From an uncultured bacterium (GTDB lineage Bacteria > Bacillota_I > Bacilli_A > RFN20 > CAG-826): a stretch of DNA of 64,000 bases. Where the stretch lies: positions 76,047 through 140,046 of the forward strand of contig CASFKG010000002.1 of the NCBI GenBank assembly GCA_949295325.1, in the 5' to 3' direction. The notes beneath the pieces were generated by a model. The model was not told the origin of the DNA. It searched no databases and saw only the letters and a program-made list of their open reading frames with translations. This document shows, piece after piece, positions 6,298 to 31,318 of this stretch (its first letter is position 1; every line of letters begins with the position of its first letter). Both the position numbers and the translations under genes were made by a program.

Positions 6298-6894
6298 ATG
6301 AGCAAGATAAGCCGCGAAGAACCAAAACGCACCGCCGCCGCTATCGAATCCTTTGTCCAAGGGGAGTTCGATAGTCCATCCCTGGGTGTGGATTCGGAAG
6401 GCCGTTTCTGCATCCCGGTTGATCTGAGGGGCGAGGAGCTTTACGCCCCTTTCGCCGGGAAAAGCCGCCTGAACGACGATCTTTTCGCCGCGGTCGAGGA
6501 GGCCGCGAAACTATCGCATAAGCCCATTCACCTCGAGATGAAACTCGAGGAGGAAAGGCTGCCGGAAAAAGACCACGTGAGGCGGGGTTACTGCCGCCAC
6601 TACGAAGCGGAGATGGAAGAGACCAAGAGGAAAATCAAGAAACTGAACCTCCAGTCGCTGCTCCTGCTCGCCGTCGGCATCTTGTTCCTGGCCGGCTACG
6701 GACTGAGCCAATATTACCTCGGGGGCCACGAAATATATTTCATCGTGCCCGAAATACTTTCCATCGTCGCCTGGGTATTCGTCTGGGCCGCCACGGAGAA
6801 GTTCTTCTTCGATTCGAGGACCGAAAGGCTGCATTGGCTCAATTACCGGCGCCTCAAGAACGCTTCGATGACCTTCTACGTCGAAAGGAAATAG
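6298..6894 (+). CDS. hypothetical membrane protein (2 C-terminal TM helices), first gene of a glycolipid operon
   Basis: ORF 6157..6894, but 6157-6297 is AT-rich and non-coding-like. TATAAT at 6285-6290 sits 7 nt before ATG 6298 (MSKISREEP…), again a leaderless pattern. The stop lies 2 nt before the GT4 gene. Confidence 0.5.
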   Translation: MSKISREEPKRTAAAIESFVQGEFDSPSLGVDSEGRFCIPVDLRGEELYAPFAGKSRLNDDLFAAVEEAAKLSHKPIHLEMKLEEERLPEKDHVRRGYCRHYEAEMEETKRKIKKLNLQSLLLLAVGILFLAGYGLSQYYLGGHEIYFIVPEILSIVAWVFVWAATEKFFFDSRTERLHWLNYRRLKNASMTFYVERK

Positions 6895-6895
6895 G

Positions 6896-8059
6896 ATGAT
6901 CGTCTGCGTTGTAAGCGATGTTTTGGGCGAAGCCAATAACGGCACGACCATCGCCGGCTTGAATCTGATAAAGACATTGAAGGACCGGGGCTACGACGTC
7001 CGCATCGTCTGCCCGGACAAGGACAAAAGCGGCCAGATCAATTACTATATCGTCCCGACCTACAGCTTCGGCCCGCTCGATTTCATCGTCGAAGCCAACG
7101 GAGTGACTCTTGCAAAAGGCGACTCGCTCGTCCTCATGCGGGCCATGCAGGAGGCCGACGAAGTCCACGTGATGACCCCGTTTAGCCTTGGACGCAAGGC
7201 GGTCAAGGTGGCCTCCTACCTCGGAAAGCCCGTTTCCGCCGGCTTCCATATCCAAGCGGAAAACGTGACCGCCCATTTCTTTTTCCTCCAAGACATAAAG
7301 TGGGTGAACAAACTCGTCTACAAGGACTTCTGGAAGCACCACTTCCAGTACGTCGACGCCATACATTATCCAACCCAGTTCATCCGCGATACGTTCGAAA
7401 GCGCGATAGGGAGGAAGACGCCCGGATACGTCATATCGAACGGGGTCAACAGGGAATTCCATAAGCGGGACGTCGGCCGCCCGAACAATTTAAAAGGCAA
7501 ATTCATCATCTATTGCACGGGGCGCTATTCGAAGGAGAAGAACCAGAAACTGCTTATCAAGGCGGTTTCCCTTTCCAAGTACGCGGACAAAATCCAGATA
7601 ATCTTCGCCGGCGAAGGCCCGAGGAAAAGGCAGCTCGAGGCCCTAAGCCGGAAACTCCTCAAAAACCCGGCCATCTTCCAGTTCTTCACGCGGAGCGAAC
7701 TCGTGGACGCCTTGTCGATCGGCGACCTCTATGTCCATACCTCCTCGGTCGAGATAGAAGCCATCAGCTGCCTGGAAGCCATCAGCTGCGGGCTCGTGCC
7801 TTTAATAAACAACGCAAAAAGAAGTGCGACGCGTTACTTCGGCCTCGGCGAAAACAACCTATTCAGGGAAGACGACTACCGGGATCTTTCCAGGAAAATC
7901 GACTATTGGATCGAGCATCCCGAGGAAAAGGAGAAATGCGCGGAGTCCTACCAAGGCTACAGCAAGCAGTTCGACTTCGACTACTGCATGCAGAAGATGG
8001 TGGAACTCGTAGAAGAAACGGCGAAGATCAAGAAGGAGGGCAGAAGTGGCAGGCAGTAA
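6896..8059 (+). CDS. GT4-family glycosyltransferase, likely glycolipid (glycosyl-diacylglycerol) synthase
   Basis: GT-B/GT4 architecture with the E-X7-E motif (EIEAISCLEAISCGLVP). The N-terminus (MIVCVVSDVLGEANNGTTIAG) resembles monoglycosyl-DAG synthases. It is operonic with an acyltransferase. Confidence 0.7.
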   Translation: MIVCVVSDVLGEANNGTTIAGLNLIKTLKDRGYDVRIVCPDKDKSGQINYYIVPTYSFGPLDFIVEANGVTLAKGDSLVLMRAMQEADEVHVMTPFSLGRKAVKVASYLGKPVSAGFHIQAENVTAHFFFLQDIKWVNKLVYKDFWKHHFQYVDAIHYPTQFIRDTFESAIGRKTPGYVISNGVNREFHKRDVGRPNNLKGKFIIYCTGRYSKEKNQKLLIKAVSLSKYADKIQIIFAGEGPRKRQLEALSRKLLKNPAIFQFFTRSELVDALSIGDLYVHTSSVEIEAISCLEAISCGLVPLINNAKRSATRYFGLGENNLFREDDYRDLSRKIDYWIEHPEEKEKCAESYQGYSKQFDFDYCMQKMVELVEETAKIKKEGRSGRQ

Positions 8060-8837
8060 GGGAAAGGAGAGGATAATCTACTATAGCGATCCGCTGAACG
8101 ACGACTTCGCGGGAACGGGCCTGAAGAGGGTCCACCTCAAGAAGAACTACCATTACACCAGCCGGAACGTATTTTACAGATTCGTTTCCTTCCTCGTTTA
8201 TTACCTCATTGCCCTGCCGGTCCTCTATGTCGCCGGAAAGTTCTGGCGGGGAATCCGGGTCAAGGGGAAGAAAAGGCTCAAGGCCCTCAAAGGGAAAGGC
8301 GCCTTCTTCTACGGGAACCATACCCAGATAGCCGACGGATTCATGGTCCAGGTCTACTGCGTTCCCTGGCGCCGTACTTCCATCATCGCCGACCGTTCGG
8401 CTTTTGCCATCAAGGGCATCGGGTGGCTTCTCAAGATGATGGGGATGCTTCCGGTACCGGAAACCGTCGGGGAAACCATGGCCTTCATGAAGGCCATCGA
8501 GGATCTTAACAAAAGGAAAAACCACATCGTCATCTATCCCGAGGCCCATATCTGGCCCTTCTATACCGGAATAAGGCCCTTCAAGGAAAACGCCTTCGTC
8601 TATCCCAGCCAACTGCTGGCCCCGGTGGTTCCTTTCTGCGTCACTTATAGGAAAAGGAAGATCTTCAGGAACAAGTCGCCGAGGATGGACATCCACATCG
8701 GGCAGCCCGTCTATCCCGATGCTTCGCTTTCAATCCATGATAGGGCCAAGGCCCTCCGCGACAGGACCTACGATTTCATGGTGGAAACCGCCTCGAGCAA
8801 CGAAAACGTCGAATGGATTAAGTACGTCAGGAAATAG
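8046..8837 (+). CDS. lysophospholipid/1-acyl-sn-glycerol-3-phosphate acyltransferase family protein
   Basis: Carries the H(X4)D acyltransferase motif (FYGNHTQIADGF) and an N-terminal TM helix. Its start overlaps the GT4 stop by 14 nt. Confidence 0.65.
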   Translation: MAGSKGKERIIYYSDPLNDDFAGTGLKRVHLKKNYHYTSRNVFYRFVSFLVYYLIALPVLYVAGKFWRGIRVKGKKRLKALKGKGAFFYGNHTQIADGFMVQVYCVPWRRTSIIADRSAFAIKGIGWLLKMMGMLPVPETVGETMAFMKAIEDLNKRKNHIVIYPEAHIWPFYTGIRPFKENAFVYPSQLLAPVVPFCVTYRKRKIFRNKSPRMDIHIGQPVYPDASLSIHDRAKALRDRTYDFMVETASSNENVEWIKYVRK

Positions 8838-8868
8838 GCGAGCAAATGCCTGGCCTATTCGCCGCGTC

Positions 8869-8883
8869 TTGATATAATCAAGG
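8869..8883 (+). promoter_or_regulatory. palindromic operator over an extended -10 (CTTGAT-ATA-ATCAAG; TGaTATAAT) upstream of rubrerythrin
   Basis: Perfect 6-3-6 inverted repeat containing TATAAT (8874-8879) with an upstream TG. The RBS AAGGAG lies at 8887-8892. Confidence 0.45.
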
Positions 8884-8902
8884 GCAAGGAGAACCAAAAA
8901 AC

Positions 8903-9442
8903 ATGGATTTGAAAGGATCTAAAACCGAACAGAACCTCATGACCGCTTTCGCCGGCGAGTCGCAGGCCCACACCAAGTACGAGTACTATGCCTCCAAGGC
9001 CAAGAAGGAAGGCTACGAGCAGATAGCCGCCATCTTCATGGAGACTTCCCTTAACGAAAAGGAACACGCCAAGCTCTGGTTCAAGTACCTCCATGACGGC
9101 GACGTTCCCACCACCGAAGCCAACCTCAAGGACGCCGCCAGCGGAGAGAACTACGAATGGACCGACATGTATGCCGGCTTCGCCGAAACCGCCCGCAAGG
9201 AAGGCTTTGAGGAAATCGCCCTTAAGTTCGAGATGGTCGGGGCCATCGAAAAGGCCCACGAGGAGCGCTACCTGAAGCTTCTCGAGAAGGTCAAGGGCGG
9301 CAAGGTCTTCATTTCCGAGGACGTTACCGTCTGGAAGTGCCGCAACTGCGGACATCTCGTAATCGGCAAGTACGCCCCCGAGATTTGCCCGGTCTGCAAG
9401 CATCCGAAGAGCTTCTTCGAGCTTCGCGCCACCAACTATTAA
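8903..9442 (+). CDS. rbr: rubrerythrin
   Basis: Diiron four-helix N-domain ([22 protein letters not shown]…EKEHAKLW) plus a C-terminal rubredoxin-like CxxC…CxxC (CRNCGH…CPVCKH). Confidence 0.9.
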
Positions 9443-9460
9443 TCGATAGCAAAGGAGAAG

Positions 9461-9488
9461 GGCGGGGAGAAATCCCCGCCTTGTTCAT
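9461..9488 (+). terminator. rho-independent terminator after rubrerythrin
   Basis: GGCGGGGA-GAAA-TCCCCGCC hairpin followed by TTGTTCAT. Confidence 0.6.
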
Positions 9489-9492
9489 AGAC

Positions 9493-9753
9493 ATGGAAAA
9501 AATAGAAATCAACGTCGAAGGGATGATGTGCTCCAATTGCGAAAAGCACGTTGCCGAAGCGCTAAGCAAGGTGCCCGGCGTCAAATCCGCTTCCGCCGAC
9601 CGCGAGAAGAAAGCCGCTTTCGTCGAAGCCGAGGACGGGGTCGGAGACGACCTCCTCAAGGCCGCGGTGGAGGAAGCCGGGTACAAGCCCGGGGATGTCG
9701 CTAGGGCCAAAGAGAAGAGCCGTTGCTTTTTCTCGCGGCTATTCAAACGATAA
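9493..9753 (+). CDS. heavy-metal-associated (HMA) domain metallochaperone, CopZ-like
   Basis: MEKIEINVEGMMCSNCEKHV carries the GMxCxxC metal-binding motif in a ~86-aa ferredoxin-like fold. The ORF as called (9337) begins inside rubrerythrin, so the start was moved to ATG 9493. Confidence 0.6.
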   Translation: MEKIEINVEGMMCSNCEKHVAEALSKVPGVKSASADREKKAAFVEAEDGVGDDLLKAAVEEAGYKPGDVARAKEKSRCFFSRLFKR

Positions 9754-9799
9754 TCGCTCTTGATTTATCTCGGTTAGACCTTGATAATATCGAGGCGCT

Positions 9800-9876
9800 G
9801 GACCATTGGTGTAGCGGCCTAACATGCTTCCCTGTCACGGAAGAGACCACGGGTTCGAATCCCGTATGGTCCGCCA
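9800..9876 (+). tRNA. tRNA-Asp (GTC)
   Basis: GGACCAT acceptor, anticodon loop CTGTCAC, T-arm GGGTTCGAATCCC, 3' GCCA. Confidence 0.85.
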
Positions 9877-9882
9877 GCGTTT

Positions 9883-9958
9883 GGCCCGATAGCTCAGTCG
9901 GTAGAGCAAGGGACTGAAAATCCCTGTGTCGGCGGTTCGATTCCACCTTGGGCCACCA
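9883..9958 (+). tRNA. tRNA-Phe (GAA)
   Basis: GGCCCGATAGCTCAGTCGGTAGAGC…, anticodon loop CTGAAAA, 3' ACCA. Confidence 0.85.
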
Positions 9959-10007
9959 TTCCGTCAGTCTCGACCTTCGAAAGGGTCGTTGCAAGTTATA
10001 GCGAAAG

Positions 10008-10036
10008 GTCCGGATTTGCCGGGCTTTTTGTTTTTT
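10008..10036 (+). terminator. rho-independent terminator after the tRNA-Asp/Phe pair
   Basis: GTCCGG-ATTTG-CCGGGC hairpin followed by TTTTTGTTTTTT. Confidence 0.55.
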
Positions 10037-10191
10037 CCAGCCGCGGCCGGGATCTCGGACAAACACCGGGCGAATGGCGTTGGGCATCTTTTCCTTTCGA
10101 GAAACGAAATGTAAGCATTTTTAAGCCGGCGAAAATAATCGTTGCCTATATTGCCAATGCCGATATCCTTTCATCATCAAAGGAGAAACAC

Positions 10192-12615
10192 ATGGAAAGC
10201 AACAAACTATTATTGGCTTTGGCGGCTTCGGCCCTGGTTCTGGCTTCCTGCGCAGGGAATGCCTCTTCCTCTTCGGCCACCCCGCCGCCCGGGCCGTCGA
10301 CTTCATCGACCGGTAGCGATCCCGAACCGGCCACGGCCATCGACGATGCCTTCATCGCCGCTTTATCTGCCAATTCGATTGTCGGAGAAGGAACTTTGGC
10401 CAACTACGGTAGCGAAACGAACGTCGAACTGTTCATAGGAACCGAATCCTACGAGTTCTTCGACTATGACGATTTCGGATACTATTACCAAGCCCAAGTG
10501 CTGCACAAAAACGCGGACGGGACCGTCCAGAGCTACTACCGCGACATAACGAACGAAATCTTCGATTCCCAACTCCTGCTGGAAGGGAGCAAAACGGCGG
10601 TCCTTTGGGATAACAATTTCTACAATCCCTTCGGAAAGATCGCCGCTTCCGACTTGACGGAGGACGGGGCGGGGGGATACGACCTCGCCGCCGACAAGGT
10701 CAATGCCTTCTGCATACCGCTTATGTTCTATTCGGTCGGAACCTACGATTCCGTAAGCCTCTCGCGGCTGGGCGATAGTCTTGCGATTTCCATAGCGGCG
10801 ACCGACGCGCGGGGAGATGACATGGACATGTCTATCGAGGTCAGGCAAGGCGAAGAAGCCGACCGTGCGGTTCCCGTCCCCTACGAAACGGAAGAGTGCC
10901 ACGAGGGCATCGATGCCGCCTTGTACGATTGGACCATGGCTTTGGCCGGTCCGAGCGACACGACCGGCTTCGTCTACGAAAAGACCATGACCCCGCTCGA
11001 TGACGACAGCATGAGCGTCGCTAGTAGCAAATCGACGGTAACCTACAATGCGGTTCTTTTCGCAAACGACGGCGGGATCACCAGCGAAAACGACTGGGGT
11101 TATGCGCTTTATAGCGACGGGAAGTACTACGAGTTCGAGGTAGTAGACGGCACGGCGGTCCGGGGAGAACCCTACGAGGGCTCATCTTATTATCCGATTC
11201 CGTCTCCGAACATCATCGCCGCCGAGATGTTCGTTCCGACGAAAGATCAGGATACCTACCTCTATCGTGATCCGGCCACTGCCACCGAGGCCCTCATCTT
11301 CCTGCTGGAGGATGCCAATGTAATCGGCCTTGTTTCCTATCTGGGCGCCAAGGACCTCACGATCCACATCGGCCCGGACGGCTACGTCGACAATTTCTCG
11401 TATACGTCCGGCATGTACAACTACGGCGGTGGCCTTTACCACGAACGCGTAAGCGTCGACATCGCCGAATTCGATACGGCCACCATCGATTACGATTTCA
11501 CCATCGAGGAAATCGCTCCGATTCCCGACATGTACGGCACGTGGACCGGTACCGACTATTGGGAGGGGACCGAGTATACTTTGGAAATTTCGGAGGACAG
11601 CGTCATATTGAACGGCAACGCCGCCGAACTCGTCTTGACGGAAACCAACCAGTGGGGTTACTACATCGGGACCCTGACATCCGGTCAAGATACTTTTGCT
11701 TTCGAGTACTATCCGGCGAGTTCCGGTTATCCGAAGCAAATCCTCCTCGAAAACGATACCTGCAGCGTTTACCTCGAAATAGCGGACAACGAGCCAATCG
11801 CCATGCCAGATGAGCTAATCGGTTCCTGGCACGGGGAAGAGGAGGGAAGCGGCTTCGCCTTCGACGTCGTCATCCTCAGTGGATCCGATATCAGCATCAA
11901 CGGCGTCTCCGCCGAAGTCGGCGAATGGGGCGAGACCTCCGACGGACTCGGCTACAAAGCCGAATTGACCGTCGAAGGCACCGTCTACGTTTTGACCTAC
12001 CGTCCGGCGGCCGGCACTTTCCGCCTCACGGACGAAACCGGGGCCTTGGTCGTCGATCTCGTGAGGACCGGGGAAGCCGAACCCGCCATCGATCCGAAGT
12101 TCGTAGGAACCTGGCAGGGGATCGACGATGCCGGCGGCGCAAGCCATACGCTGGTGATAAACGCCGATGCCACCGCCACCTATGACGGCGTTGCTTTCGA
12201 CGAACCGTTGGAATTCGTTAAGACCGTGTTTTCCGAAAAGGCCACCGCTACCCTCGGCGACAAGGAGTACGAAATCGAATACCTTTCGGGACTTGAGGGC
12301 GATTACATAAAAGTTACCGACGAGGATTACGTCGAAGCCACCCTCTACAAATCCTTTCCGTCCTTCGACTTCCCGGACGAATACGTCGGGACGTGGTCCG
12401 ACGGTACCCATGAGTTGGTGATGGGCGGGGACGGGACGATCGTATTCGACGGAACGCCCGCGACTTCCTTCGTTTCAACTGGCTTCGAAGGCGAATACGT
12501 TGCGGTCATCGGCGGAGAAACCTACGACATAAGCTACGTTGACTATTCCGGCCAGCAGCCCTTCTTCAGCGTACTGACTCCCGACGGAAACCCCCTCATT
12601 CTCAGGAAAGCCTGA
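10192..12615 (+). CDS. acidic lipoprotein with four C-terminal tandem ~95-aa repeats (unknown family)
   Basis: Signal peptide plus lipobox (MESNKLLLALAASALVLASCAGN), followed by a Ser/Pro-rich linker. The C-terminal half has four repeats. Each opens with [YLFY][GIVV]G[TS]W and the first three have an I[LS]?[IV]NG[NV][AS]AE motif, the fourth being more diverged (YGTWTG…, IGSWHG…, VGTWQG…, VGTWSD…). An RBS (AAAGGAG) precedes the ATG. Confidence 0.7.
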   Translation: MESNKLLLALAASALVLASCAGNASSSSATPPPGPSTSSTGSDPEPATAIDDAFIAALSANSIVGEGTLANYGSETNVELFIGTESYEFFDYDDFGYYYQAQVLHKNADGTVQSYYRDITNEIFDSQLLLEGSKTAVLWDNNFYNPFGKIAASDLTEDGAGGYDLAADKVNAFCIPLMFYSVGTYDSVSLSRLGDSLAISIAATDARGDDMDMSIEVRQGEEADRAVPVPYETEECHEGIDAALYDWTMALAGPSDTTGFVYEKTMTPLDDDSMSVASSKSTVTYNAVLFANDGGITSENDWGYALYSDGKYYEFEVVDGTAVRGEPYEGSSYYPIPSPNIIAAEMFVPTKDQDTYLYRDPATATEALIFLLEDANVIGLVSYLGAKDLTIHIGPDGYVDNFSYTSGMYNYGGGLYHERVSVDIAEFDTATIDYDFTIEEIAPIPDMYGTWTGTDYWEGTEYTLEISEDSVILNGNAAELVLTETNQWGYYIGTLTSGQDTFAFEYYPASSGYPKQILLENDTCSVYLEIADNEPIAMPDELIGSWHGEEEGSGFAFDVVILSGSDISINGVSAEVGEWGETSDGLGYKAELTVEGTVYVLTYRPAAGTFRLTDETGALVVDLVRTGEAEPAIDPKFVGTWQGIDDAGGASHTLVINADATATYDGVAFDEPLEFVKTVFSEKATATLGDKEYEIEYLSGLEGDYIKVTDEDYVEATLYKSFPSFDFPDEYVGTWSDGTHELVMGGDGTIVFDGTPATSFVSTGFEGEYVAVIGGETYDISYVDYSGQQPFFSVLTPDGNPLILRKA

Positions 12616-12644
12616 TAAGCCAAACGGTCAAAAGCCCTCCTTTC

Positions 12645-12666
12645 GCCCAAGAGGATGGGCTTTTTT
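12645..12666 (+). terminator. rho-independent terminator after the lipoprotein gene
   Basis: GCCCA-AGAGGA-TGGGC hairpin followed by TTTTTT. Confidence 0.65.
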
Positions 12667-13149
12667 CCTTGCGGGCAACCTGCCGGAAGCGGGAACGGCG
12701 AACGGCTCGAAAAAGGGATACGGGCGGCTTTTCTATTGGCCCTTGGCTTCGGGATATCCCTTTATCTCCCTTCGATGGCCTTTCCTGACCTATACGCCTA
12801 TATATTCAACGCGGACGAAGAAGTCCTTGGACTCGTTAGAACATACGCCCCGTTGTTCCTCGTGGGGACGATAATGTTCCCGATCCAAATGACGTTGCAG
12901 AACCTGAACGTCGCCTTTGGCCAGGCCAAAAGCGCGATTGTCCTTGCGGTCATGAGAAAGGTCGGCATACTCATTCCACTATGCTTCGTCCTTTCGCATT
13001 TCCTTTCCTATCCAGGGGTCTACATGTCGGAAGGCATAGCCGATTTGGTTGCCGGGACCATCACCGGCATCGTGATATTCTCGACCTTTCCGCGGATCAT
13101 AAGAAGAAGGTCGGAATCGGCAAAGAAATACGTCGGAAACGACTCCTGA
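12655..13149 (+). pseudogene. remnant of a MATE-family efflux transporter (C-terminal ~3 TM helices only)
   Basis: The translation (…TYAPLFLVGTIMFPIQMTLQNLNVAFGQAKSAIVLAVMRKVGILIPLCFVLSHFL…GIADLVAGTITGIVIF) matches the conserved C-terminus of MATE/NorM/DinF transporters. The N-terminal ~300 aa are absent. The only in-frame ATG (12655) lies inside the preceding terminator hairpin and has no RBS. Confidence 0.4.
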
Positions 13150-13218
13150 GGGCTCCGGCGCTCCTTGAGTCTAAGAGATTTATACATAGTAAAGACACTG
13201 GATATTTTTTGCCGAAAA

Positions 13219-13245
13219 GAAAACGCCCCGCCGGGGCGTTGCTTC
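13219..13245 (-). terminator. rho-independent terminator downstream of the minus-strand tRNA-Asp/Gly pair
   Basis: Minus-strand reading: ACGCCCC-GGC-GGGGCGT hairpin followed by TTCTTTTCGGCAAAAAA. Confidence 0.5.
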
Positions 13246-13249
13246 CTAT

Positions 13250-13323
13250 TGGAGCAGGTGACGAGAATCGAACTCGCATAGTCAGCTTGGAAGGCTGATG
13301 TTCTACCACTGAACTACACCTGC
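13250..13323 (-). tRNA. tRNA-Gly (TCC)
   Basis: Reverse complement is GCAGGTGTAGTTCAGTGGTAGAAC…, anticodon loop CTTCCAA, 3' TCCA. Confidence 0.85.
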
Positions 13324-13324
13324 G

Positions 13325-13401
13325 TGGCGGACCATACGGGATTCGAACCCGTGGTCTCTTCCGTGACAGGGAAGCATGTTAGGCCGCTACACCAATGGTC
13401 C
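13325..13401 (-). tRNA. tRNA-Asp (GTC), second copy
   Basis: Its reverse complement is 77/77 identical to the plus-strand tRNA-Asp at 9800..9876. Confidence 0.85.
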
Positions 13402-13442
13402 ATTCGCGTAGCCCGGCTAATATAGCACGGACCCGCGGGCGA

Positions 13443-13748
13443 TTAAAGGTTTAGTAGAGACAAAACGCTCTCTTTCGGCATATAGCCCATGCGGACAGCC
13501 AACGTTTTGCCGTTTTCGAAGGCAATGAGGGTCGGGATGGCGCTCACGCGGTAGACGGAAGCGAGTTCCGGGACTTCGTCGACGTTGACCTTTAGAACGT
13601 TGATTTCGGGATGTTCCTTGGCGATCTCTTCGACGATGGGGGACAGCATCTTGCAGGGCCCGCACCAGTCGGCATAGAAGTCGACTAGGACCTTGCCCGA
13701 TTGGATTTCGACATCGAATTCCGACTTGCTAGCAATGTGTTTCAGCAT
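13443..13748 (-). CDS. trxA: thioredoxin
   Basis: 101 aa with the WCGPC active site (VDFYADWCGPCKMLSP) and a typical Trx fold length. Confidence 0.85.
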   Translation of the reverse strand: MLKHIASKSEFDVEIQSGKVLVDFYADWCGPCKMLSPIVEEIAKEHPEINVLKVNVDEVPELASVYRVSAIPTLIAFENGKTLAVRMGYMPKESVLSLLNL

Positions 13749-13775
13749 GTTTTTCTCCTTTTTGATCTTATGGTT

Positions 13776-14714
13776 CTACGCCGCGCCCACGCAAAGGGCC
13801 ACGATAAGGAATATCAGCCCAAGGTGTATCGGGTAATAGGCATAGCAACCGTACTTGAACCATTTGCCATTGTAACCAAGTCTTCCGCTATAGCAAGCAA
13901 CTAGCACCGCGGAAAGGCAGGAATAGCTTTGCAGCCCCATGCTCCAGATGTCGTAGGGCCCCGAGGCGAATAGTTCGGTGGCGCCGATGGAACATAATCC
14001 CCAGAAAACGAGATTGACGACGATGATCGATCCGGCACAGAAAAGATCTAGCAGAAAGCGGTAGTCTTCCGTCTTCCTATACTCGTCCATCATTTCCTCG
14101 CCTCTGATGGCCGAGACCGACGAGACGAGCATTTCCAGAAGTTTCGGGGAGTAGTAGAAAAGCATGAACAGGGCAAAGCCGTAGATGTTATAGCCTCCGA
14201 AGAAAAGCCGGAAAGGCGCATAGGCGATATCCACGCCCGACATGAACCTTATGAAATACGACGCCCCGACATAGGCCAAAGGCAAAAGCGCCAACGTCCG
14301 GATTTTCCGGTTTTTGCTTTCCAACAGGTAAATAAACAAGGCGTAGGGCAGCAAATCGGAAAAAGCCTGGCTACCGACATTTGTGGAAAAGCCGAACTGG
14401 ATGACGCAGGAGACGGCCAAAACCGCAATCCATACTGCCGAGAGCCTCAGTAAATACCTTTCCCTGGAATGGGTATGGCGGAGGCCTTCTGCCAAAAGGA
14501 ATACGAATAGCGGGAAGGAGAGCCGACCTATCATCCTCAGGACAAGTATCAGGTTATCGAGCCAGCCACCGGAAACGATTAGTATCCCGGCGCTAGGAAG
14601 AACGTTCTCCAAGGCCAATCCGACATGGTCGACCGTCATGGTAATCAGGGCGACGACCTTTAGCCAAAACGAATCGATGACCAGGTGTTTTTTCTTATTT
14701 AGCGTTTCTTCCAT
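13776..14714 (-). CDS. TraX-family polytopic membrane protein
   Basis: N-terminal motif FWLKVVALITMTVDHVGLAL is characteristic of TraX family proteins. It has 8-9 predicted TM helices. Confidence 0.55.
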   Translation of the reverse strand: MEETLNKKKHLVIDSFWLKVVALITMTVDHVGLALENVLPSAGILIVSGGWLDNLILVLRMIGRLSFPLFVFLLAEGLRHTHSRERYLLRLSAVWIAVLAVSCVIQFGFSTNVGSQAFSDLLPYALFIYLLESKNRKIRTLALLPLAYVGASYFIRFMSGVDIAYAPFRLFFGGYNIYGFALFMLFYYSPKLLEMLVSSVSAIRGEEMMDEYRKTEDYRFLLDLFCAGSIIVVNLVFWGLCSIGATELFASGPYDIWSMGLQSYSCLSAVLVACYSGRLGYNGKWFKYGCYAYYPIHLGLIFLIVALCVGAA

Positions 14715-15529
14715 CAGACGGCTCCTGCGGCGATAAGTATAACCGAGAGGAGGTTATTGAGGGCATGGGTCGTTAGGGAGGCACCCAATCCCTGCTTGTC
14801 GTAAACATAGCAGAGTATGAGGCCCGGCACGATGTAGGAAGGCAGGTTCAGCCATTCGTTAAGGGAACCGATATTCGTGAAGTCGAAATGGATGAAGCCG
14901 AATATCGCCCCGGCAACTATGTATGCGATCCAGTCGTTAGCACGTTTAAGCACCCCGAAAAGTCCGACCCTGTAGATGAGTTCTTCGGCGAATGGCCCCA
15001 AAAGCCCAAGGAAGACGATGGCCAGGGCCGGAGATGCCAGTACGATCTGATTGACAAGAGTCTGGTTCTGGTTGTCGGTGACGTTGGCCCCTGCAAGGCT
15101 AAGTACCAGTCCATAGAGGAAATTAAACACATAGATCACAATGAAGCCGACGAGGCCCAAAACAGGTCCTTTCCAGGAAAATTTGCGCAATATCCCCTTC
15201 CATTTGTCGAAAACGATAAGGCACAGTAGGACTAGGACCGTCCCATAACTCACATACTGTGCAATCGAAAGGTTCACGGGGTCCGTTACGGCGCTTTGTC
15301 CGCCGGCAGAAAGCTGAATCAATTGGACCGCCGTTGCTACGAGGGAAAGCAAAAGATAGCCACCTAGCGCAAGCGCGATTTCCCTCGCGGCCCCGACCGG
15401 ATAAAAACCGGAGAATCCCCTGGTGGATGCCGGATCGTCGTTTTCCTTTCCGCACTTCGGGCAATCCTTCAGCGCAGCATCGTAAGTCGACCCGCATTCC
15501 TGGCATTTACGGTAGGTGACAATCCGCAT
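14714..15529 (-). CDS. CPBP-family intramembrane metalloprotease (CAAX protease/Abi-like) with an N-terminal zinc ribbon
   Basis: CPBP motifs: EExxxR (FAEELIYRVGLFG), FxxxH (FGFIHF) and HALNNLL. The N-terminus has CQECGS…CPKCGK (2×CxxC). Confidence 0.7.
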   Translation of the reverse strand: MRIVTYRKCQECGSTYDAALKDCPKCGKENDDPASTRGFSGFYPVGAAREIALALGGYLLLSLVATAVQLIQLSAGGQSAVTDPVNLSIAQYVSYGTVLVLLCLIVFDKWKGILRKFSWKGPVLGLVGFIVIYVFNFLYGLVLSLAGANVTDNQNQTLVNQIVLASPALAIVFLGLLGPFAEELIYRVGLFGVLKRANDWIAYIVAGAIFGFIHFDFTNIGSLNEWLNLPSYIVPGLILCYVYDKQGLGASLTTHALNNLLSVILIAAGAV

Positions 15530-15551: not shown

Positions 15552-15590
15552 TAGTGCTTGTGCATATTTCTTTGTGCGATAATTGCAGAC

Positions 15591-18500
15591 ATGGGATCCC
15601 TATTCAGAATTTTGGCCGACGCCGTCGACGTCGGTTCGATAGTCGATATTTTGACGACTTCGCTCAACGTTGCCTTCTGGGCGATAGTCGCCCTGCTCAT
15701 ACTAGCCTTCCTTTGGGGCCTTCTCCACGGCTGGCGTTACGGGGTCTACCGCCTCGTTTCCTTTGCCATTTGGATCGCCGTCTTCCTGATTTGCCTTGAA
15801 CCGCTTGCCGATTTCGTCGGCAACTTCGATCTATCCGGTTTCGGCTTGCCGGCTATAAACCTGGCCATTAACGGTGCGACGGTTTCGGTTTCCTGGACAA
15901 CGCCTTTCGCGACCATCGGAACGCTGGTTAGCGAGGCCATGAAGGCCCTAGGGACAAACCTCGATCCTTCCGAGCTTGCTTCCTACGCCATTTCGCTGGC
16001 CACAAACAGCGTCAAACTCGTTCTTCTTTTGGTCTACGGGCTGCTGTTGCTAACCCTCGTAAATTTCGTCATCTGGCTTTTCTGGCACATCCTTTTCAAG
16101 TGGCTCACCCCGAAGAGAATCCGTAGAAACCGGAAGAAGATGAACAAAGGACGCATAGTGAACGGCCTTGTCCAGACCGCCTTCGTCTTCGTCGCTGGCG
16201 CCTTGGTTATCTACCCGCTGACTTCCGTTGTGAATACCATCAACCAAGCCGTGGTCCGCCCCGACGAAGAAACGATGGAACAGATAAGGGCGGATAACGG
16301 AACCTACGCGACGGTTGTCGACGTCCTAGATGCCTACGACTCTTCGATTTTTGCCCAGGTTTTCTTCAACTGGAGCGAATCGGAAGGCATGACGTTCGAC
16401 GCGAAGCTCATCGATCTTCTGATAAACAGCAATTATGGCGACATGTCGGTGTCGCTTCTTCAGGAACTGGGATCAATCGCTTCCATTGCCGCGACGGCGC
16501 TTTCTACCGGCGTCGACTTAAGCGGCAGCCAAGGCGAAATCCTTTCGACATTGATTACCGCCAATCAAACCCCGGAAATACTTAGGCTTTTGGCCGACAA
16601 CCAACTGGTGAGCATCGCCCTTCCCTTCGCCTTTCAGATTGCGGTTAACATCGACGAGGTTTCCTCTTATCTCTTGACCGACGAGGGAATCGCCGCCGAC
16701 AGCGAGGATTTCTCCAATGCCCTCGATTCCTTGGCGGATCTATACCAAGGCGTCCTCGATTCGGGGACCCTCGAAGGCCTATACATCGACGATAACGGCC
16801 AAATGAGCTTCGACCTGGATTACGTCTTCAATCTTTTTAACGAGGAAACGAAGGCCGACTTCGATGCTTTCTTCGACTCGATTGACGACGGCAAGCTTGC
16901 CCTTTTCGAGAACATACTCGACAGTTTCGCCTACGTCCAGGCGGTAGCTGCCGATAAGCAGTTCGGAGAAGATCCCAACGTCCTTACCATCGCCGACTTT
17001 TTGCCGGAAGCCACCTTCGTCGACACGAACAACGACGGTCGTCCGGACGCGGTGAGCCAGGATTTCAAGGACATCGAGTGGGGAAGCGAATTACGCTACG
17101 TCTACGACTTCGTCTACGAAGCCAATTCGATCGATCCAGATTTCGCCCCGGCCCTGTTGTCCGGCCTCATGGCCTCCGGCGGGACGGGCGAGGTGAACAT
17201 GCAGCCGGTCATCGACTTTGCCGTCGACAACATCACCGACATATCCGACCTCTTCGTCGGCGATCTCGGCGACATCGATTCCGAAACCGGGCATTCGAAG
17301 ACGGAAGGGGAGACCTGCCTCCTCGACTCGTCACTCATCAACAACGCGATGCCGAAAATGCTTTCTTTGCTTGGAACCGGCATAAATTCCGGTCTATTCG
17401 AGGACGAGGAAGTCGTCGACATGCAGCCCATCACCGACGAACTGGAGGGCGCGACGGTCGCGGAGAGCATGATCAACTACAAACGCGAGCTCTCCTCTCT
17501 TCTCTCCGTCATGGAGGAGTTCCTCGTCGGCCATCCCTCCGCGTCCGCGCTTTTGAAGGATTTCGAGGAACATCCGGGCGTCTACATCGATCCCGACAAC
17601 GTCTTCCAAGGCATGGAAGGCGATATCTATGACGGGGCAATCGACGCCCTAAGGGTTATGGATTCCTCTTTGATAGCGAGCAATATCCTGCCGGCGGTCT
17701 TCTCAAAATTCCTCGACGGGGACGGCAATTTCGTCAATAACCTGCTCGGGCCCGAAGCCTTGCCGCTTGATTTCGGCGTCGAAAACCTCGGTGGGGAACT
17801 GGCCGACCTATTGGCCGCGGTTAAGGAACTGGACCCCTATATCCCGGTTCTTACCGGACTTGGTAGTTCCAGTTTCTCCTCCTCCCAGATCAAGGACCTC
17901 CTTTCCGTCGAAATCGGCGAGGGGAGCGATGCCAAACCCCTTCTTGGATACCTGCTCGATTTATTTGCCAACAGCAAGATCCTCAATCCGGTCGACGAAG
18001 TCGACGGAGTGACCGTGATAAACACCAACTACTACTGTCTCATGAAGACCGTGGCCGATGCTGCCTTCGGGGAGGGCAGTTTCCGGCTTTCCATCGGCGA
18101 TTTCCAGGATGCTTCCTTCGCGGAAAGCGAAAACGACGCATTCTTGAGGGTCCTTGGCGAAATCGTCGATACCGGGCTGCTCGATAACCTCGGCGATGTC
18201 GCTTCGGGCGAGATTACCCGGGTCCTTCGGGTCCTCAACGCCATTCCGGAAGAGGATTTCGTCTCCCTGTTCGGATCGCTTGGCGATTCCTTGGTCCTGA
18301 AGAGCTGCATAAGCGACTTCCTCGACGAGAACCTCACCGCCGCGTTGTTCGGGACCGATAGCGGCATATCCTTCGGAAACGTGACCGATTGGGTCGAGGA
18401 AGGACGGTCGCTCAAGGCCCTTATACGCTTTGCAAGCGAAGTAGGGGATCTTTCCAATATCGACTTCTTCAATAGCGACCCCTATGCCGTGGAGGGGATT

Positions 18501-21500
18501 ATACGGGTCTGTGCGACCAGCCAGTTGTTCATAAAAGACGGCGATTATCTGTTCCCCGGTTTCCTCGCGGATACTTTGGGAAAGTCCCTCGAGGGCACTT
18601 CGGTCACCCTGATAGAGGGTTCGTATTTCGATTATGGGACGCAGTCGTTTGCCGTCATCGAAGGCAACGAATACGGCTTACTTAAGGCCAACGTCCTTTC
18701 CCTCGACAATCCGGACGATTGGGTCGCCGAGTCCGCCGTCTTGGGCGACGTTCTCGAATCGGCCCAGAAACTAGGTGGACTCGAGAACCTCTCGATCTAC
18801 GAAATGGACCCAGACCTATTCGAAGAACTCATGTCCTCGGCCTCCTACTCGGAGGTTCTGGGAAATCTTCTTGTCCCCAACGTCTTTGCCATGGTGGAAG
18901 ACGATTTGGCCGCTGCGCTGGTGCAATACGGCGGAATCAGCGTCGAAAACGCCAACATCGCCTATGTCTATGACGGAACGCCCCAGGAAAGGGCGGCCGA
19001 AACCGTCCTCCTTTCCGATCTGCTGGCCGCCGTAACCGATCCGACGTACGGCCTGATGGACGAAGGCCAGGTGGCGAGTTCGGTTTCGCTCGCTAGCCTT
19101 TCGGGACGCCATACCCTTAAACCGATCCTCGACGCCTTGGCGGACAGCCGGGTCTTCAATTCATCCTACGTCGAAGGCACCGACACGGCCTTCGAATCGC
19201 TTTTGGCCAGCACGCTTTACGGAACCGGGCTCTACGGCGATGCCGTGACCGGCCAGGAGGTCCTCGAAAGGGTCCGGGAAGTGACGGACTGGAACTTCGA
19301 GAACGCCTCCATCGCCGATGCCCTGGATTCCATGAAGGAGATTCTCGGCGGCGGGACCGACTTGGGGAGCCTCGACTTCGCCTCTTATTTCAGCGGTACC
19401 GCGGCCGAGGTGGAAGCAAGGAAGAGCGATTTGGCCGCCCTGCTCGACAACATGGACCAAAGCCTCTTGCTCTCGCTCGCCATGAGAAGCCAGCTCGCCG
19501 GCATGGCCTCTTCCTTCGAGGTTCCGCTTGTCGAAGGCGGCTTGGCCACCGCCAACTTCGCCTACGAAAACGGGGAAGGCCGCTACGGGCACGAGGAAAT
19601 AATGAATTTCGTGGACGCATTGTCCATATTGGCCGGTCTAGGCGACGATCCGCTTTCCGGCGACATGAGATCCTATGTCGACGTAGCCAAGCTTTTGGCC
19701 CAGAGCCATATTTTCAACACGGTTAAGGACGGGCAGGAAAGGACCTTCTTCCAAAGCACGATGTACGCGATTATCGGTAACGAGGCCATATCTGCCTATC
19801 TTTGCCCGGTGGACGACGCGGGCCGCCCGACCAGTCCGAAGGCCGAGGGGTTCGCCACTTCCGGCGATTATATCGCCAACTTCATCTACAGCGTCAATTT
19901 CCCAAGCAGCGCCGATGGCGTCGCCACCCCCGACAACCAGGTCGAATTGGACAGGCAGCAGGGGCTGATAGATTCCTTGGGGGACGTCCTGCCTTCGATT
20001 TCCGCCTTCTTCGGGGCCGGCGATTTCTCTCCCTCTAGCATCGATACCGAGACCCTCTACGGGTTGCTTGACGCCATCAACGGCAGCGATTTGCTTTTCG
20101 AAATGGTGCCGAACATCCTCTCGTCCTATTTGACCGGCGACAACCTCGACATCGAAATCGAAGGCATAGACATCGCGTTGGCCAATCCCTATTTCTCCTA
20201 TTATTACGACGAATCCAGCGGGGTCCTCGATTTCGATAGCCCCGACTGGAGCCGCCATTATCCGGCCAGCGAAATCGAGAACATCGTGGACCTCATCTCT
20301 TATCTGCGCGATTTCCGGAACGTCCTTGGCACTATCGATTTCTCCTCGGTTTCGCCCATCGCTTTCCACGACGTGCTCATGCTTGCCCACGACTCCTACG
20401 TGTTCAACCTGGCCGGTCCGAACCAGCAGAACCTGAGCCATGCCCGCAACGCGATCGACCAACTGCCGAACAACCTGACCGTGTTCGAACAGCTGATGCT
20501 AAAGGTCTACGATGCCACCGCGATAGGATATTTCTCCTTCGACGTCCAGGAGGATGCCGTATTCCTGCTCTCCTTAAAGGACAATAACGGCAATCCGTTC
20601 CTGGGAAGCTATTCGGATCTTCTGTCCTTTGCCGCCCGGGAAGACGCCAAGGAGGTAGGTTCGAGGGCCAAACTCTATGCGAGGATAATCGAAGGGCGCG
20701 ACGGCGGCTTCGACTATGAGCGCGAAATCGCCGCCCTTACCATCGGAAGCCCGACCGAAGTCGGTTTCTTCGAAGCCATCCAGAACAGCGACCTGCTCGG
20801 CAGCGACAGCGACCTTTCCAACGTTTCCACGAGCTTCGAGAACCTTTCGCCCGACGATCTCGGCCTCTTGCTGCGGAGCCTCAACGAACTCGAACTGGTC
20901 GACCTTCCGGCCGCCTATCTGGCCGATTCGATGGTCAACGGCTTGCCGGACGAAAACTCCTCGTCGAGTTTCTCCGGGATGGGAATGCAAAGCTATTCCA
21001 GCTATTCCGTAAAAAGCGGTAGCAGCCTCTTCGGCGAAGGCCGCATCCTCTCTCTCGACATAAGCGAGGTCGACGAGACCCTCCTTGACGGCCTTACTTT
21101 CACATTGCACGGCAAGGACCGGGAAGGTACGGCGGCGAACGTTTCCGACTTACCCCATAGCGGCGGGCACTACGATTTCGGGGACCTGCTCCCTTACGGC
21201 CTAGAGGTCAGCGGCCTTCCGGAGGACTCGAATGCCGCGTTTACCTACACGGTCGACAGCTCGGACTACTTCTTCAGGGAAGAAAAGACCATTGCGGCGG
21301 CCGCGCAGCGTTACCGCGAAGGCGGCATAGAGACGATGGTCGAGATGCTCGACGCGCTCTATATCGACGGCGACGGCGACGGGACCGAGGACAGCTATTT
21401 CGCCTTCGACGCCTCCAGCCGGGAAGGCATCACCCAGGCCCTCGACATCGGCACCGCCACCATCTTGGAGTTCCTCGGATCCAAAGGCGGTTTCTACGTG

Positions 21501-25927: not shown

Positions 25928-25931
<4 letters not shown>

Positions 25932-28234: not shown

Positions 28235-28248
28235 CGGAGATAACGAAC

Positions 28249-31200: not shown

Positions 31201-31314
31201 CATTACGATGACCAGGTAAACGGCTACCGCAAAATCGTCGAAGGGCTGTTCGGCCTGCCGACGTCCGGATATCTTGTTTCCCTAACGCAAGGCCGCTATA
31301 AGGTAGTAGAGTAA
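28249..31314 (+). CDS. addA: ATP-dependent helicase/nuclease subunit A (UvrD-type helicase with C-terminal PD-(D/E)XK nuclease)
   Basis: Walker A (AGAGSGKTEVL), UvrD motifs (FIMVDEYQDTS; TIHKSKGLEFP), and a C-terminal nuclease (VIDYKSS). The start was moved to ATG 28249, which has a GGAGA RBS. Confidence 0.85.
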   Translation: MAYKPSSQQQAAISAGKGRYLVAAGAGSGKTEVLSLRTVELIKTGQCKLGELLVLTFGNDAAASMKKRILEKLSAENDHHCKEAARSIDSASVMTFDALAYRIVSSYAHLLGLSSSIAIDADGILDFECQRLIDSYSEELSGKKDAKYLSLLWRYCYKTADPIKNYVLDLYKASLLSPDPLEWLSKEVPGRFLTPGYYRECEESIRQWAIGQLAEIISDCHDLLSFESDYRDAFAFVPEDLSLAYRKSLEEGNGFQLAGRYPTCGKAMEEAYPGIKGISESLKARVAAVQKKTKLLGGHPEELEEEFLASKDDISFLCGLAARLYRDMAAVMENAGLYGFNDIYHMALEAMDNPEINRDFAGKYKFIMVDEYQDTSDLQQSFIDKLGISNVFYVGDVKQSIYGFRHANPKYFSKLSGDYAGKKDGTLLRMTYNFRSREEVLEGINGIFASFMSEGLGGVDYADGQALDYGNKSYSPSSSLERYGIETVSVKDDGKSPLPCYRYIAEDIARKLTSGFRVFSKDEAGGGRPCRPGDFAVLCMTRNNYDDLIKELESRHVPYVSDAPKGLGDSDVLMALSSLAKFYLYLDEKDNLDDLRHSYASIRRSFLYMDSDEDIWKALCGNAFLNGDFARDVRQNRAAFLKLSLPEAVRYLSEHHGFREGLLRVRGLKKAYASLYSIYGVAESFERLGYGLEKLTGLPGFLREQKSDLGGDKANMDLDAVKIYTIHKSKGLEFPLVYIGELEHRFNFRDFNVGKLADCEYGVALEPYDTSLAFAPSVDASIKKRAGALSEYIRLFYVALTRTKEKLVLVETDVPDRPNEYGKAWNIRCFRDLLELAGIKAKEASLPFPGGETSYVSAFAASGTGTVDLIKAKPVGGSEKSARYSKESLFVDEWAAERGTMLHSLMQLVDFATLDCSFVADLDLRSSLERALALPPFREARGYKAYKEYGFVDETGREGSIDLLLLGKDRAVVIDYKSSNIDDPHYDDQVNGYRKIVEGLFGLPTSGYLVSLTQGRYKVVE

Positions 31315-31318
31315 AGGG

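Follow-up and report, generated by a model that had tools for sequence, protein, structure and literature searches.

Two identical, convergently placed tRNA-Asp genes, probably old loci kept alike, on either side of a species-specific interval in an uncultured bacterium

The window, a stretch of 64,000 nucleotides (64 kb), includes two identical tRNA-Asp genes. These are probably old paralogous loci that have been homogenised and that face each other across an ordinary gene-turnover spot containing a pseudogene. Each is the first gene of a tRNA operon, and there is nothing unusual in the way the two operons are arranged, tail to tail. ARAGORN placed tRNA-Asp(GTC) genes that are 100 % identical and in opposite orientation at 9800–9876 (plus strand) and 13325–13401 (minus strand). 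The Rfam tRNA matches agreed with the ARAGORN calls, with 63.6 bits for each tRNA-Asp copy, and by both methods the copies are complete canonical genes with the same anticodon. The repeat finder returned inverted arms of 78 nt (9799–9876 and 13325–13402) that are 100 % complementary, with a spacing of 3448 nt. Each arm corresponds to the tRNA-Asp gene plus one base, a length far above chance, and the homology ends with the gene.

The first-pass annotation had described identical inverted tRNA-Asp genes, each with a partner tRNA (Phe or Gly), and had placed between the tRNA pairs a gene for an 807-aa lipoprotein, its terminator and a MATE-like ORF with its ATG (12655) inside the terminator hairpin. 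All of this was borne out. It had also described the tRNA terminators as outward-facing, which is wrong relative to the bracketed segment, as the terminators (at approximately 10000–10037 and 13240–13222) sit inside the tRNA-Asp pair because the two tRNA operons are convergent. The features, in order along the window, are as follows.

8903–9753, plus strand: left conserved flank, made up of a rubrerythrin gene (8903–9442) and a CopZ-like HMA gene (9493–9753)
9760–9788, plus strand: promoter-like site TTGATT-17-GATAAT, 11 nt 5' of the left tRNA-Asp (consensus scan)
9800–9876, plus strand: tRNA-Asp(GTC), left copy, first gene of the Asp-Phe operon (ARAGORN, Rfam, repeat finder)
9883–9958, plus strand: tRNA-Phe(GAA), its 3' end forming the left edge of the species-specific segment (ARAGORN, Rfam, blastn)
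10000–10037, plus strand: intrinsic terminator of the Asp-Phe operon, a GC hairpin with a U-run (fold, sequence)
10192–12615, plus strand: gene for the 807-aa lipoprotein, with its own RBS (ORF, lipobox, repeats)
12630–12666, plus strand: lipoprotein terminator, a hairpin with a T-run, which includes the ATG at 12655
12685–13149, plus strand: 3' remnant of a MATE transporter gene (Pfam, TIGRFAM, homologue alignment)
13222–13240, no strand assigned: GC-rich palindromic hairpin, the terminator of the Asp-Gly operon, with its T-rich tail on the minus strand
13250–13323, minus strand: tRNA-Gly(TCC), its 3' end forming the right edge of the species-specific segment (ARAGORN, Rfam, blastn)
13325–13401, minus strand: tRNA-Asp(GTC), right copy, first gene of the Asp-Gly operon (ARAGORN, repeat finder)
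13419–13447, minus strand: promoter-like site TTTAAT-17-TGcTATATT, 5' of the right tRNA-Asp (read from the sequence)
13443–15529, minus strand: right conserved flank, made up of genes for thioredoxin (Trx), TraX and an Rce1-like protease

The order on the plus strand is promoter, tRNA-Asp, tRNA-Phe and terminator, and that on the minus strand is promoter, tRNA-Asp, tRNA-Gly and terminator. The fold of 9959–10040 has an energy of -29.4 kcal/mol (z = -3.6). The hairpin at 13222–13240 also stands at the end of the MATE remnant. Comparison by blastn with L030, the closest relative whose contig could be used, showed homology beginning at 9783, and hence the -10 region of the left promoter-like site is conserved. 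The right promoter-like site was unflagged by the consensus scan, and its motif CTGTGCTATATT recurs at the corresponding position in L030, L032 and L039.

Both loci were traced in relatives. L030 carries GT4, acyltransferase, rubrerythrin, tRNA-Asp and tRNA-Phe genes in the same order as the left locus of the window; the CopZ-like HMA gene is missing from L030. The order TraX-Trx-Asp-Gly of the right locus is present in L032–L034/L036, where TraX is 44 % identical, and also in L037–L039, L042, L043, L045, L048, L049, L061 and L067, where TraX is 30–37 % identical. A TraX search of genome contigs returned distant matches only (33–42 % identity over approximately 90 residues), with no GTDB representative of the same genus. 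Gene order therefore indicates long-standing vertical inheritance of the two tRNA-Asp loci and not a fresh duplication of either, because the rubrerythrin-Asp-Phe linkage is found in L030 and the Trx-Asp-Gly linkage, with a conserved promoter, in many distant relatives. The suggestion that the pair reflects a recent duplication or insertion, or brackets a delivered cargo, finds no support, both loci being conserved in this way.

The identity of the two copies appears to be maintained. Between the window and L030, nucleotide identity is 72 % in the protein-gene block and 97.7 % in the tRNA-Asp/tRNA-Phe pair. The left tRNA-Asp differs from its L030 orthologue at 2 nt, which make up a compensated pair in the anticodon stem, T29-A43 in both window copies and C29-G43 in L030. 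The right copy is 0 nt from the left copy and 7–12 nt from the Trx-linked tRNA-Asp genes of relatives. The contigs of species C (L027–L029) end 129 nt past thioredoxin, so they fall outside the tRNA comparison. Since species differ in tRNA-Asp and yet the window copies share the compensated stem change, this three-species comparison points to concerted evolution, in the form of gene conversion, that keeps the tRNA-Asp copies identical, probably together with purifying selection. Loss of tRNA-Asp in the ancestor of species A and B, followed by a recent re-duplication in the window lineage, would also give the same identical copies, and L030 is indeed without a second tRNA-Asp. However, this needs one extra event, and the conserved promoter spacing speaks against it.

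Concerted evolution of this kind has a familiar counterpart in aspT, aspU and aspV of Escherichia coli, which are identical multi-copy tRNA genes. As there, the window has identical isoacceptor copies at separate loci in their own operons, here with a lineage-specific compensated substitution in both. Unlike aspT, aspU and aspV, the window copies are inverted and 3.4 kb apart, and the conversion is deduced from comparison.

The DNA between the two operons is species-specific. The left blastn match to L030 stops exactly at 9958 and the right match reaches 13242, 8 nt beyond tRNA-Gly, leaving a species-specific interval of 3.28 kb (9959–13241) that runs from the 3' end of tRNA-Phe to that of tRNA-Gly. 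In L030, Trx-tRNA-Gly on one side and tRNA-Phe-tRNA-Asp-rubrerythrin on the other enclose 4.37 kb containing a 5'-nucleotidase gene and four unknown ORFs, with the same convergent flanks as the window and a single tRNA-Asp. No homology was found between the 3.28 kb window interval and the 4.37 kb interval of L030. Since a single tRNA-Asp and unrelated genes lie within the same flanks in L030, the limits of the variable segment are set by tRNA-Phe and tRNA-Gly, at their 3' ends, and not by tRNA-Asp. The first-pass annotation had seen a cargo segment bracketed by the tRNA-Asp genes and had proposed a comparison of synteny with relatives. The DNA between the operons is indeed variable, and L030 has the same flanks with unrelated content inside, but the boundaries do not lie at tRNA-Asp.

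The same flanks with different accessory content are what is found at hotspots flanked by core genes, and the interval at 9959–13241 is probably a species-specific spot of gene turnover, in the sense of two genomes compared, L030 being the sole relative that shares both flanks. Turnover would have come about through insertion, deletion or ordinary recombination and not through an integrase. Many hotspots of gene flux are without mobile elements and show recombination in the core genes on either side (Oliveira, Touchon and Rocha 2017, PMC5635113). The interval resembles these in that a relative has conserved flanks around unrelated content and the window contains no integrase or mobile element; hotspots, however, are defined statistically over many genomes per species, whereas two species are compared here.

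The larger of the two genes in the interval encodes the 807-aa lipoprotein, which has the lipobox LASC (Cys20), is all-beta and ends in four C-terminal repeats of approximately 95 aa. It had no match in Pfam or NCBIfam. The AF2 model has a pLDDT of 83, and a PDB fold search with the whole 807-aa model gave weak multi-domain matches only, which were TbpB/LolA/OspA-like. Homologues with 36–52 % identity were found in other genomic contexts, none syntenic with the window, so these cannot date the arrival of the gene. Some adjoin a tRNA cluster (L018) or restriction-modification/defence-like genes (L017, L020). In this organism, the lipoprotein gene, which has its own terminator, is probably an accessory surface gene of the interval.

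The MATE-like ORF is 164 aa if read from the ATG at 12655, and gene callers start it at 12775. It matches positions 56–161 of 161 in Pfam MatE and positions 278–388 of 396 in TIGR00797, the latter with 53.9 bits against a cutoff of 147.4. The remnant corresponds to residues ~316–462 of a relative of ~470 aa, or the last ~150 of ~460 residues. A functional MATE transporter has approximately 450 residues, two MatE repeats and 12 transmembrane helices, and the ORF falls short of this. All matches of the first homologue search were fragments of split MATE genes, and their loci were unrelated to this one, with no synteny. The impression that all MATE relatives are short proved to be an artefact of this word-indexed search, which seems to return matches of ~0.55–1.7 times the query length, as a full HMMER scan found full-length relatives of 440–474 aa. 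The 5' part of the gene is absent from the whole 64-kb window and from the loci of all relatives fetched.

The break in the MATE gene falls directly after the lipoprotein terminator (12661–12685). The gene has lost its 5' two thirds, probably by deletion or replacement with an edge at this point, and the truncation is presumably recent, given that the frame of the remnant remains open and well conserved. It had been proposed that an insertion destroyed the MATE gene and delivered the lipoprotein gene. A true 3' remnant abutting the terminator was found, but delivery is unsupported, and a simple deletion would account for the truncation equally well. The 124–164-aa 'MatE' ORF is better labelled a pseudogene fragment.

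The first-pass annotation had read the identical inverted tRNA-Asp genes as an active inversion substrate, with a 3.4-kb segment that flips, and as the trace of an insertion that brought the lipoprotein gene and destroyed the MATE gene. This is unlikely. The repeats themselves would allow inversion, as they provide 78 bp of perfect inverted homology, which exceeds the minimum usually quoted for RecA-dependent exchange. In length and identity (78 nt, 100 %) they should be adequate for a RecA-type invertible segment, and a RecA-type crossover within them could invert 9877–13324. The homogenised copies also imply interaction between them. Precedents exist: between the inverted tuf genes of Salmonella, inversions reportedly make up as much as half of all recombination events (PMC6735719), and inversion breakpoints in pairs of oppositely oriented tRNA genes are known in Thermococcales (PMC5495485). 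The insertion is suggested by truncation of the MATE gene at the lipoprotein terminator and by the presence of lipoprotein homologues at other loci elsewhere. However, the present orientation retains both ancestral linkages: rubrerythrin-Asp-Phe is shared with L030 and Trx-Asp-Gly with more than 10 relatives. No inverted orientation was seen between relatives. Likewise, the k87 contig passes through the 78-nt repeats unbroken, the composition of the lipoprotein gene shows no foreign sign and the limits of the variable segment are tRNA-Phe and tRNA-Gly, not tRNA-Asp. Of the proposed homologous inversion substrate, the 78-nt identical inverted repeats stand, and the flip, though mechanistically reasonable, is unsupported.

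Inversion would also be without regulatory consequence because both operons begin with the same gene. The product would again be promoter-Asp-Gly and promoter-Asp-Phe, a swap of Phe and Gly that is predicted to be nearly neutral. Nor does the segment resemble a site-specific switch: each repeat is an entire tRNA gene, and the terminators and RBS of the segment are its own. No recombinase domain of a Hin, Fim or shufflon-type switch was found by Pfam in any annotated ORF of the window.

The best-known inverted pair of this sort is tufA and tufB of Salmonella, inverted duplicates in which gene conversion goes together with inversion of the chromosome (Hughes 2000, cited in PMC6735719; PMC5485169). 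As with tufA and tufB, inverted identical housekeeping genes co-evolve in the window and a crossover would invert the DNA between them. The tuf repeats are ~1.2 kb and inversion was seen experimentally, with a fitness cost; in the window pair the repeat is 78 bp, no inversion was observed and the product is predicted to be equivalent in function. Inversions at oppositely oriented tRNA pairs have been described in Thermococcales, where they are catalysed by the integrase of the plasmid pTN3, and in chloroplast genomes (PMC5495485). The window shares with these cases oppositely transcribed tRNA genes that are potential inversion end points, but unlike the Thermococcales it has no integrase and no inversion was seen.

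An equally improbable origin for the interval is a tRNA-targeting integrative island that entered at the 3' end of tRNA-Phe or tRNA-Gly and has decayed, with loss of its integrase and att repeat. The homology with L030 ends where such elements usually integrate, at tRNA 3' ends, the content of the interval is wholly different between the two species, and the neighbourhoods of the lipoprotein homologues noted above would suit an island. Against this, Pfam scans of the annotated ORFs across the window, including the interval, found no integrase or transposase, and the 28–29-nt 3' parts of tRNA-Phe, tRNA-Gly and tRNA-Asp were found only in the genes themselves at up to 3 mismatches, so there is no partial tRNA direct repeat of the att type. 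Relatives of the cargo were not found on viral contigs, plasmids or phages, PADLOC gave no hits and PHROG none that was informative. Foreign composition had been considered a possible sign, but none was detected; the tetranucleotide distance falls on the 65th percentile when windows of equal size are compared, GC is 0.551 versus 0.566, and the codon usage distance of the lipoprotein gene (0.065) is typical for its length. The interval is like tRNA-targeting islands in that variable DNA begins at a tRNA 3' end, and unlike them in having no integrase, att direct repeat or compositional anomaly. By the hallmarks tested, it is not a mobile element.

It is very unlikely that the convergent operons anchor a cassette-exchange spot by their fixed homology, with a phenotypically silent RecA-driven flip-flop of the cassette between the tRNA-Asp genes that occurs at a measurable rate in the population and is tolerable as both operons share their first gene. 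This behaviour would resemble that of the plastid inverted repeat and, to our knowledge, is undescribed for bacterial tRNA gene pairs. Were both orientations present, this locus could conveniently serve to report short-homology inversion as it happens naturally in an uncultured anaerobe.

That the pair or segment is chimeric, produced by joining unrelated contigs at a conserved tRNA, is scarcely credible: the window is a metagenome contig (ENA ERZ17292901 k87_2359230), tRNA sequences are common to different species and a Logan contig (L002) ends inside tRNA-Phe and tRNA-Gly, but L002 spans 9915–13278 at 100 % identity and joins both partner tRNAs via the interval, the independently assembled L030 shows the same convergent flanks, a second contig of 399,858 bp has the same neighbours, composition is uniform and the 78-nt repeat is shorter than the assembly k (87).

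The locus, read as two old, homogenised tRNA-Asp loci on either side of a turnover spot, is a small example of three known things and has little importance beyond this genome. Identical tRNA copies can be old loci homogenised by conversion and are not necessarily recent. Turnover between related species affects the DNA just 3' of tRNA genes even where there is no integrase, and a pseudogene fragment can mark the edge of a turnover event.

Five tRNA genes were predicted in the window by ARAGORN, and a scan of all 64 kb against Rfam recovered no RNA family besides the tRNAs. The operons of interest, Asp-Phe and Asp-Gly, are convergent and are each headed by tRNA-Asp.

Features of the two tRNA operons and of the DNA between them
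9760–9788, sigma-70-like promoter, 5′ of the left tRNA-Asp
9800–9876, + strand, tRNA-Asp(GTC), left copy (ARAGORN, Rfam)
9883–9958, + strand, tRNA-Phe(GAA) (ARAGORN, Rfam)
about 10000–10037, terminator of the Asp-Phe operon, 3′ of tRNA-Phe, inside the tRNA-Asp pair
10192–12615, ORF of the 807-aa lipoprotein, between the tRNA-Asp arms
12630–12666, hairpin and T-run, containing an ATG at 12655
13240–13222, terminator of the Asp-Gly operon, 3′ of tRNA-Gly, inside the tRNA-Asp pair
13250–13323, − strand, tRNA-Gly(TCC) (ARAGORN, Rfam)
13325–13401, − strand, tRNA-Asp(GTC), right copy (ARAGORN, Rfam)
13427–13419, extended −10 motif TGcTATATT, 5′ of the right tRNA-Asp, with TTTAAT 17 nt upstream (read from the sequence)

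The first-pass annotation had described the two tRNA-Asp genes as identical and inverted, and this was borne out by both tRNA searches and by a repeat finder, which returned a single long inverted repeat (9799–9876 and 13325–13402; 78 nt, 100% complementary, arms 3448 nt apart). The homology covers the tRNA-Asp gene and a single further base, and the flanks lie outside it. The contents claimed between the arms, namely an 807-aa repeat lipoprotein, its terminator and a MATE remnant with an ATG in that terminator, were confirmed, as were all coordinates that had been given. The partner tRNAs, Phe and Gly, and their terminators are present, but the terminators are not outward-facing as had been stated; because each tRNA-Asp is first in its operon and the operons converge, they lie inside the pair.

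Relatives were found through the TraX protein encoded beside the right tRNA pair, at 55% (species C), 53% (species B) and 44% (species D) identity. In L030, the contig of species B (NCBI GCA_964392865.1), both flanks of the window are present and face each other, with Rce1-TraX-thioredoxin and then tRNA-Gly(TCC) on one side and tRNA-Phe, tRNA-Asp, rubrerythrin, an acyltransferase, a GT4 glycosyltransferase and tRNA-Met on the other.

Alignments of the window to L030 (blastn)
6896–9442, 72% identity
9783–9958, promoter −10 region and Asp-Phe, 97.7% identity
13242–13325, tRNA-Gly, 92.9% identity
13465–15034, 65% identity

A second tRNA-Asp is missing from L030, where tRNA-Gly comes first, 25 nt downstream of the conserved promoter motif CTGTGCTATATT. 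The order TraX-thioredoxin-tRNA-Asp-tRNA-Gly was found in species D (L032–L034/L036) and in ten more metagenome loci (TraX 30–37%), while about fifteen other metagenome loci have tRNA-Gly without tRNA-Asp. The right promoter-Asp-Gly operon must therefore be older than the split from species D, with the tRNA-Asp lost in L030. The left arrangement, rubrerythrin-Asp-Phe, is shared with L030 and so predates the split of these two species, and the convergent juxtaposition dates from the common ancestor of the two. Ham1-like, YhhN, CmpB and MFS genes 3′ of tRNA-Gly are common to species D and the metagenome loci and absent from the window and L030. Across loci L032–L067, TraX-thioredoxin-promoter (CTGTGCTATATT)-tRNA-Asp-tRNA-Gly forms a deep synteny block in which TraX is only 30–44% identical (TraX match +400 to +1500), and about half of these loci have lost tRNA-Asp and kept tRNA-Gly alone.

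Several other features were seen around the locus. An 86-aa CopZ-like heavy-metal-associated gene (9493–9753) lies between rubrerythrin and the left tRNA-Asp, where L030 has a 103-nt spacer, making a second small difference in gene content. Two species C contigs, L027 (at 11410) and L029 (at 4017), stop at the identical base, 129 nt past thioredoxin and just beyond a terminator, as might be expected of a repeat or of a boundary that varies between strains. A giant ORF (15558–22535, 2325 aa) matches no Pfam or NCBIfam family; counterparts of 2265–2315 aa adjoin Rce1-TraX-thioredoxin in L027 and in L032/L033 of species D, and none is present in L030. Elsewhere the window has the genes of an ordinary chromosomal backbone, among them those for F-type ATP synthase, PriA, LeuRS, an AddAB-like nuclease/helicase pair, glycogen synthesis and a Ser/Thr kinase-phosphatase pair. 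The AddAB-like pair (PD-(D/E)XK nuclease, UvrD-type helicase) forms a trio with the DUF5677 protein that follows it (25928–32446), and this trio is also in L030.

The comparison with relatives proposed in the first-pass annotation thus found the flanks and tRNA operons shared with L030, and the interval between them unlike. No blastn alignment to L030 was found anywhere in 9959–13241, and the corresponding 4.37 kb in L030 holds a 642-aa 5′-nucleotidase/metallophosphoesterase and four ORFs without family matches. Since the juxtaposition, the DNA between the operons has been fully replaced in at least one of the two species. Judged by this alignment, the variable DNA begins and ends where tRNA-Phe and tRNA-Gly have their 3′ ends, and not at the tRNA-Asp genes that had been proposed to bracket it. 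The compositional check found the interval native-like, with a GC of 0.551 (window 0.566), a tetranucleotide distance to the window at the 65th percentile among equal-sized windows and a typical codon usage in the lipoprotein gene. The annotated ORFs of the 64-kb window include no integrase, transposase or invertase domain, no att-like partial tRNA repeats were found, and PADLOC gave zero hits for the interval genes. The PHROG matches were confined to the MATE remnant and the L030 nucleotidase, each to a family of unknown function. The locus is best described as two old convergent tRNA operons around a small gene-turnover interval, and the interval resembles those gene-flux hotspots of Oliveira et al. 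(PMC5635113) that lack mobile elements.

A lipobox (LASC, Cys20) is present in the 807-aa protein, as are four repeats of about 95 aa, with G[TS]W marks at residues 449, 544, 639 and 733. Its 21 homologues (36–56% identity; near-full-length ones 36–52%) are all uncharacterised, and no relative was found on IMG/VR contigs, plasmids or phages. Because homologues sit at different loci in three other genomes, one right after a tRNA-Ile-Val-Thr cluster and two adjoining restriction-modification or AAA_15-type genes near a nitroreductase-DegV pair, the gene is, on gene order, accessory and without a conserved position. The family (775–923 aa, all-beta, four C-terminal repeats of about 95 aa) is represented at window 10192–12615, L017 8001–10511, L018 8001–10448 and L020 8001–10745; the AAA_15 genes beside members in other genomes are defence-like. 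The AlphaFold model is confident (mean pLDDT 83) and all-beta, and it only weakly resembles the surface lipoproteins TbpB and OspA and LolA-like half-barrels; a role as a surface binding protein would be a guess.

A 164-aa ORF (12655–13149) matches the C-terminal part of MatE. Homology was located at 12685–13146 by tblastn with reconstructed homologues and by a full HMMER scan, corresponding to residues of about 298–449 of 455, 317–463 of 469 and 316–462 of a 470-aa representative; the TIGR00797 match (positions 278–388 of 396) scored 53.9 bits against a cutoff of 147.4. The homologue search found only matches of about 0.55–1.7 times the query length, so full-length relatives of fragments were missed by it and found by the full HMMER scan. 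The 5′ part of a MATE gene is nowhere in the 64 kb, and in none of the relatives does a MATE gene adjoin tRNA-Gly. As neither candidate start has a usable ribosome-binding site and a strong terminator precedes the ORF, it is best named a pseudogene fragment. With a frame that is still open and a well-conserved core (54–72% identical to relatives), the truncation is probably not ancient. The break falls between 12661 and 12685, immediately 3′ of the lipoprotein terminator, and would be explained equally well by a deletion that began at the end of the lipoprotein unit and reached into a MATE gene downstream of it or by incoming DNA that replaced the MATE 5′ part. Of the past insertion or rearrangement proposed earlier, the variability of the segment and the MATE fragment are real, but delivery of the lipoprotein as cargo is not supported. 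The nearest MATE relatives are split into two adjacent ORFs in several independent assemblies (238+216, 331/360/374+94 and 360+123 aa; L003 7252–8651, L009–L012 about 6877–8285, L015 8953–10372), and the 94-aa piece is on at least 24 contigs; the splits may be real frameshifts or sequencing errors.

The tRNA-Asp sequence varies within the clade, with 2 differences from the window in L030, 7 in species D and 8–12 in others. The two L030 differences together change a single anticodon-stem pair, which is T29-A43 in the window and C29-G43 in L030, and the window-specific pair is present in both window copies. The right copy is 0 nt from the left and at least 7 nt from the thioredoxin-linked tRNA-Asp of more distant relatives. 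Given the age of both loci, these sequences are most simply read as copies homogenised by gene conversion, with help from selection on a single functional form of tRNA-Asp; on this reading the identical genes are an instance of concerted evolution. Homogenisation is normal behaviour of multi-copy tRNA genes. A parallel is provided by the inverted tuf genes of Salmonella (PMC5485169; PMC6735719). Alternatively, the thioredoxin-proximal tRNA-Asp may have been lost before the window species and L030 split and then precisely re-inserted in the window lineage, but this needs one event more, and the re-insertion would have to restore the ancestral promoter-to-tRNA spacing.

The window sequence was assembled from a metagenome, comes from an uncultured bacterium and is identical to ENA ERZ17292901 contig k87_2359230 (330 kb), which carries the lipoprotein sequence. 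The latter occurs beside the same neighbour genes on a 399,858-bp contig, and again on L002, a 3.4-kb Logan contig that equals window 9915–13278 at 100% identity and has both ends within tRNA genes (tRNA-Phe and tRNA-Gly). The homologous inversion suggested in the first-pass annotation was not supported. The assembled orientation has rubrerythrin-Asp-Phe as in L030 and thioredoxin-Asp-Gly as in species D and others, and the k=87 assembly runs through both 78-nt repeats; this evidence speaks for a stable orientation. A crossover within the 78-bp repeats is mechanistically possible and would invert 9877–13324. As both operons start with tRNA-Asp, and the partner tRNA, terminator and lipoprotein ribosome-binding site lie in the inverted piece, the product would be left promoter-Asp-Gly-terminator and right promoter-Asp-Phe-terminator, functionally equivalent to the present arrangement. 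If such an inversion occurs, selection could hardly favour or oppose it. Inversions at oppositely oriented tRNA genes are known in Thermococcales and in chloroplasts (PMC5495485); those in Thermococcales are integrase-driven, in contrast to the window, whose annotated ORFs hold no integrase domain, and an inversion found here would be one more example beside them.
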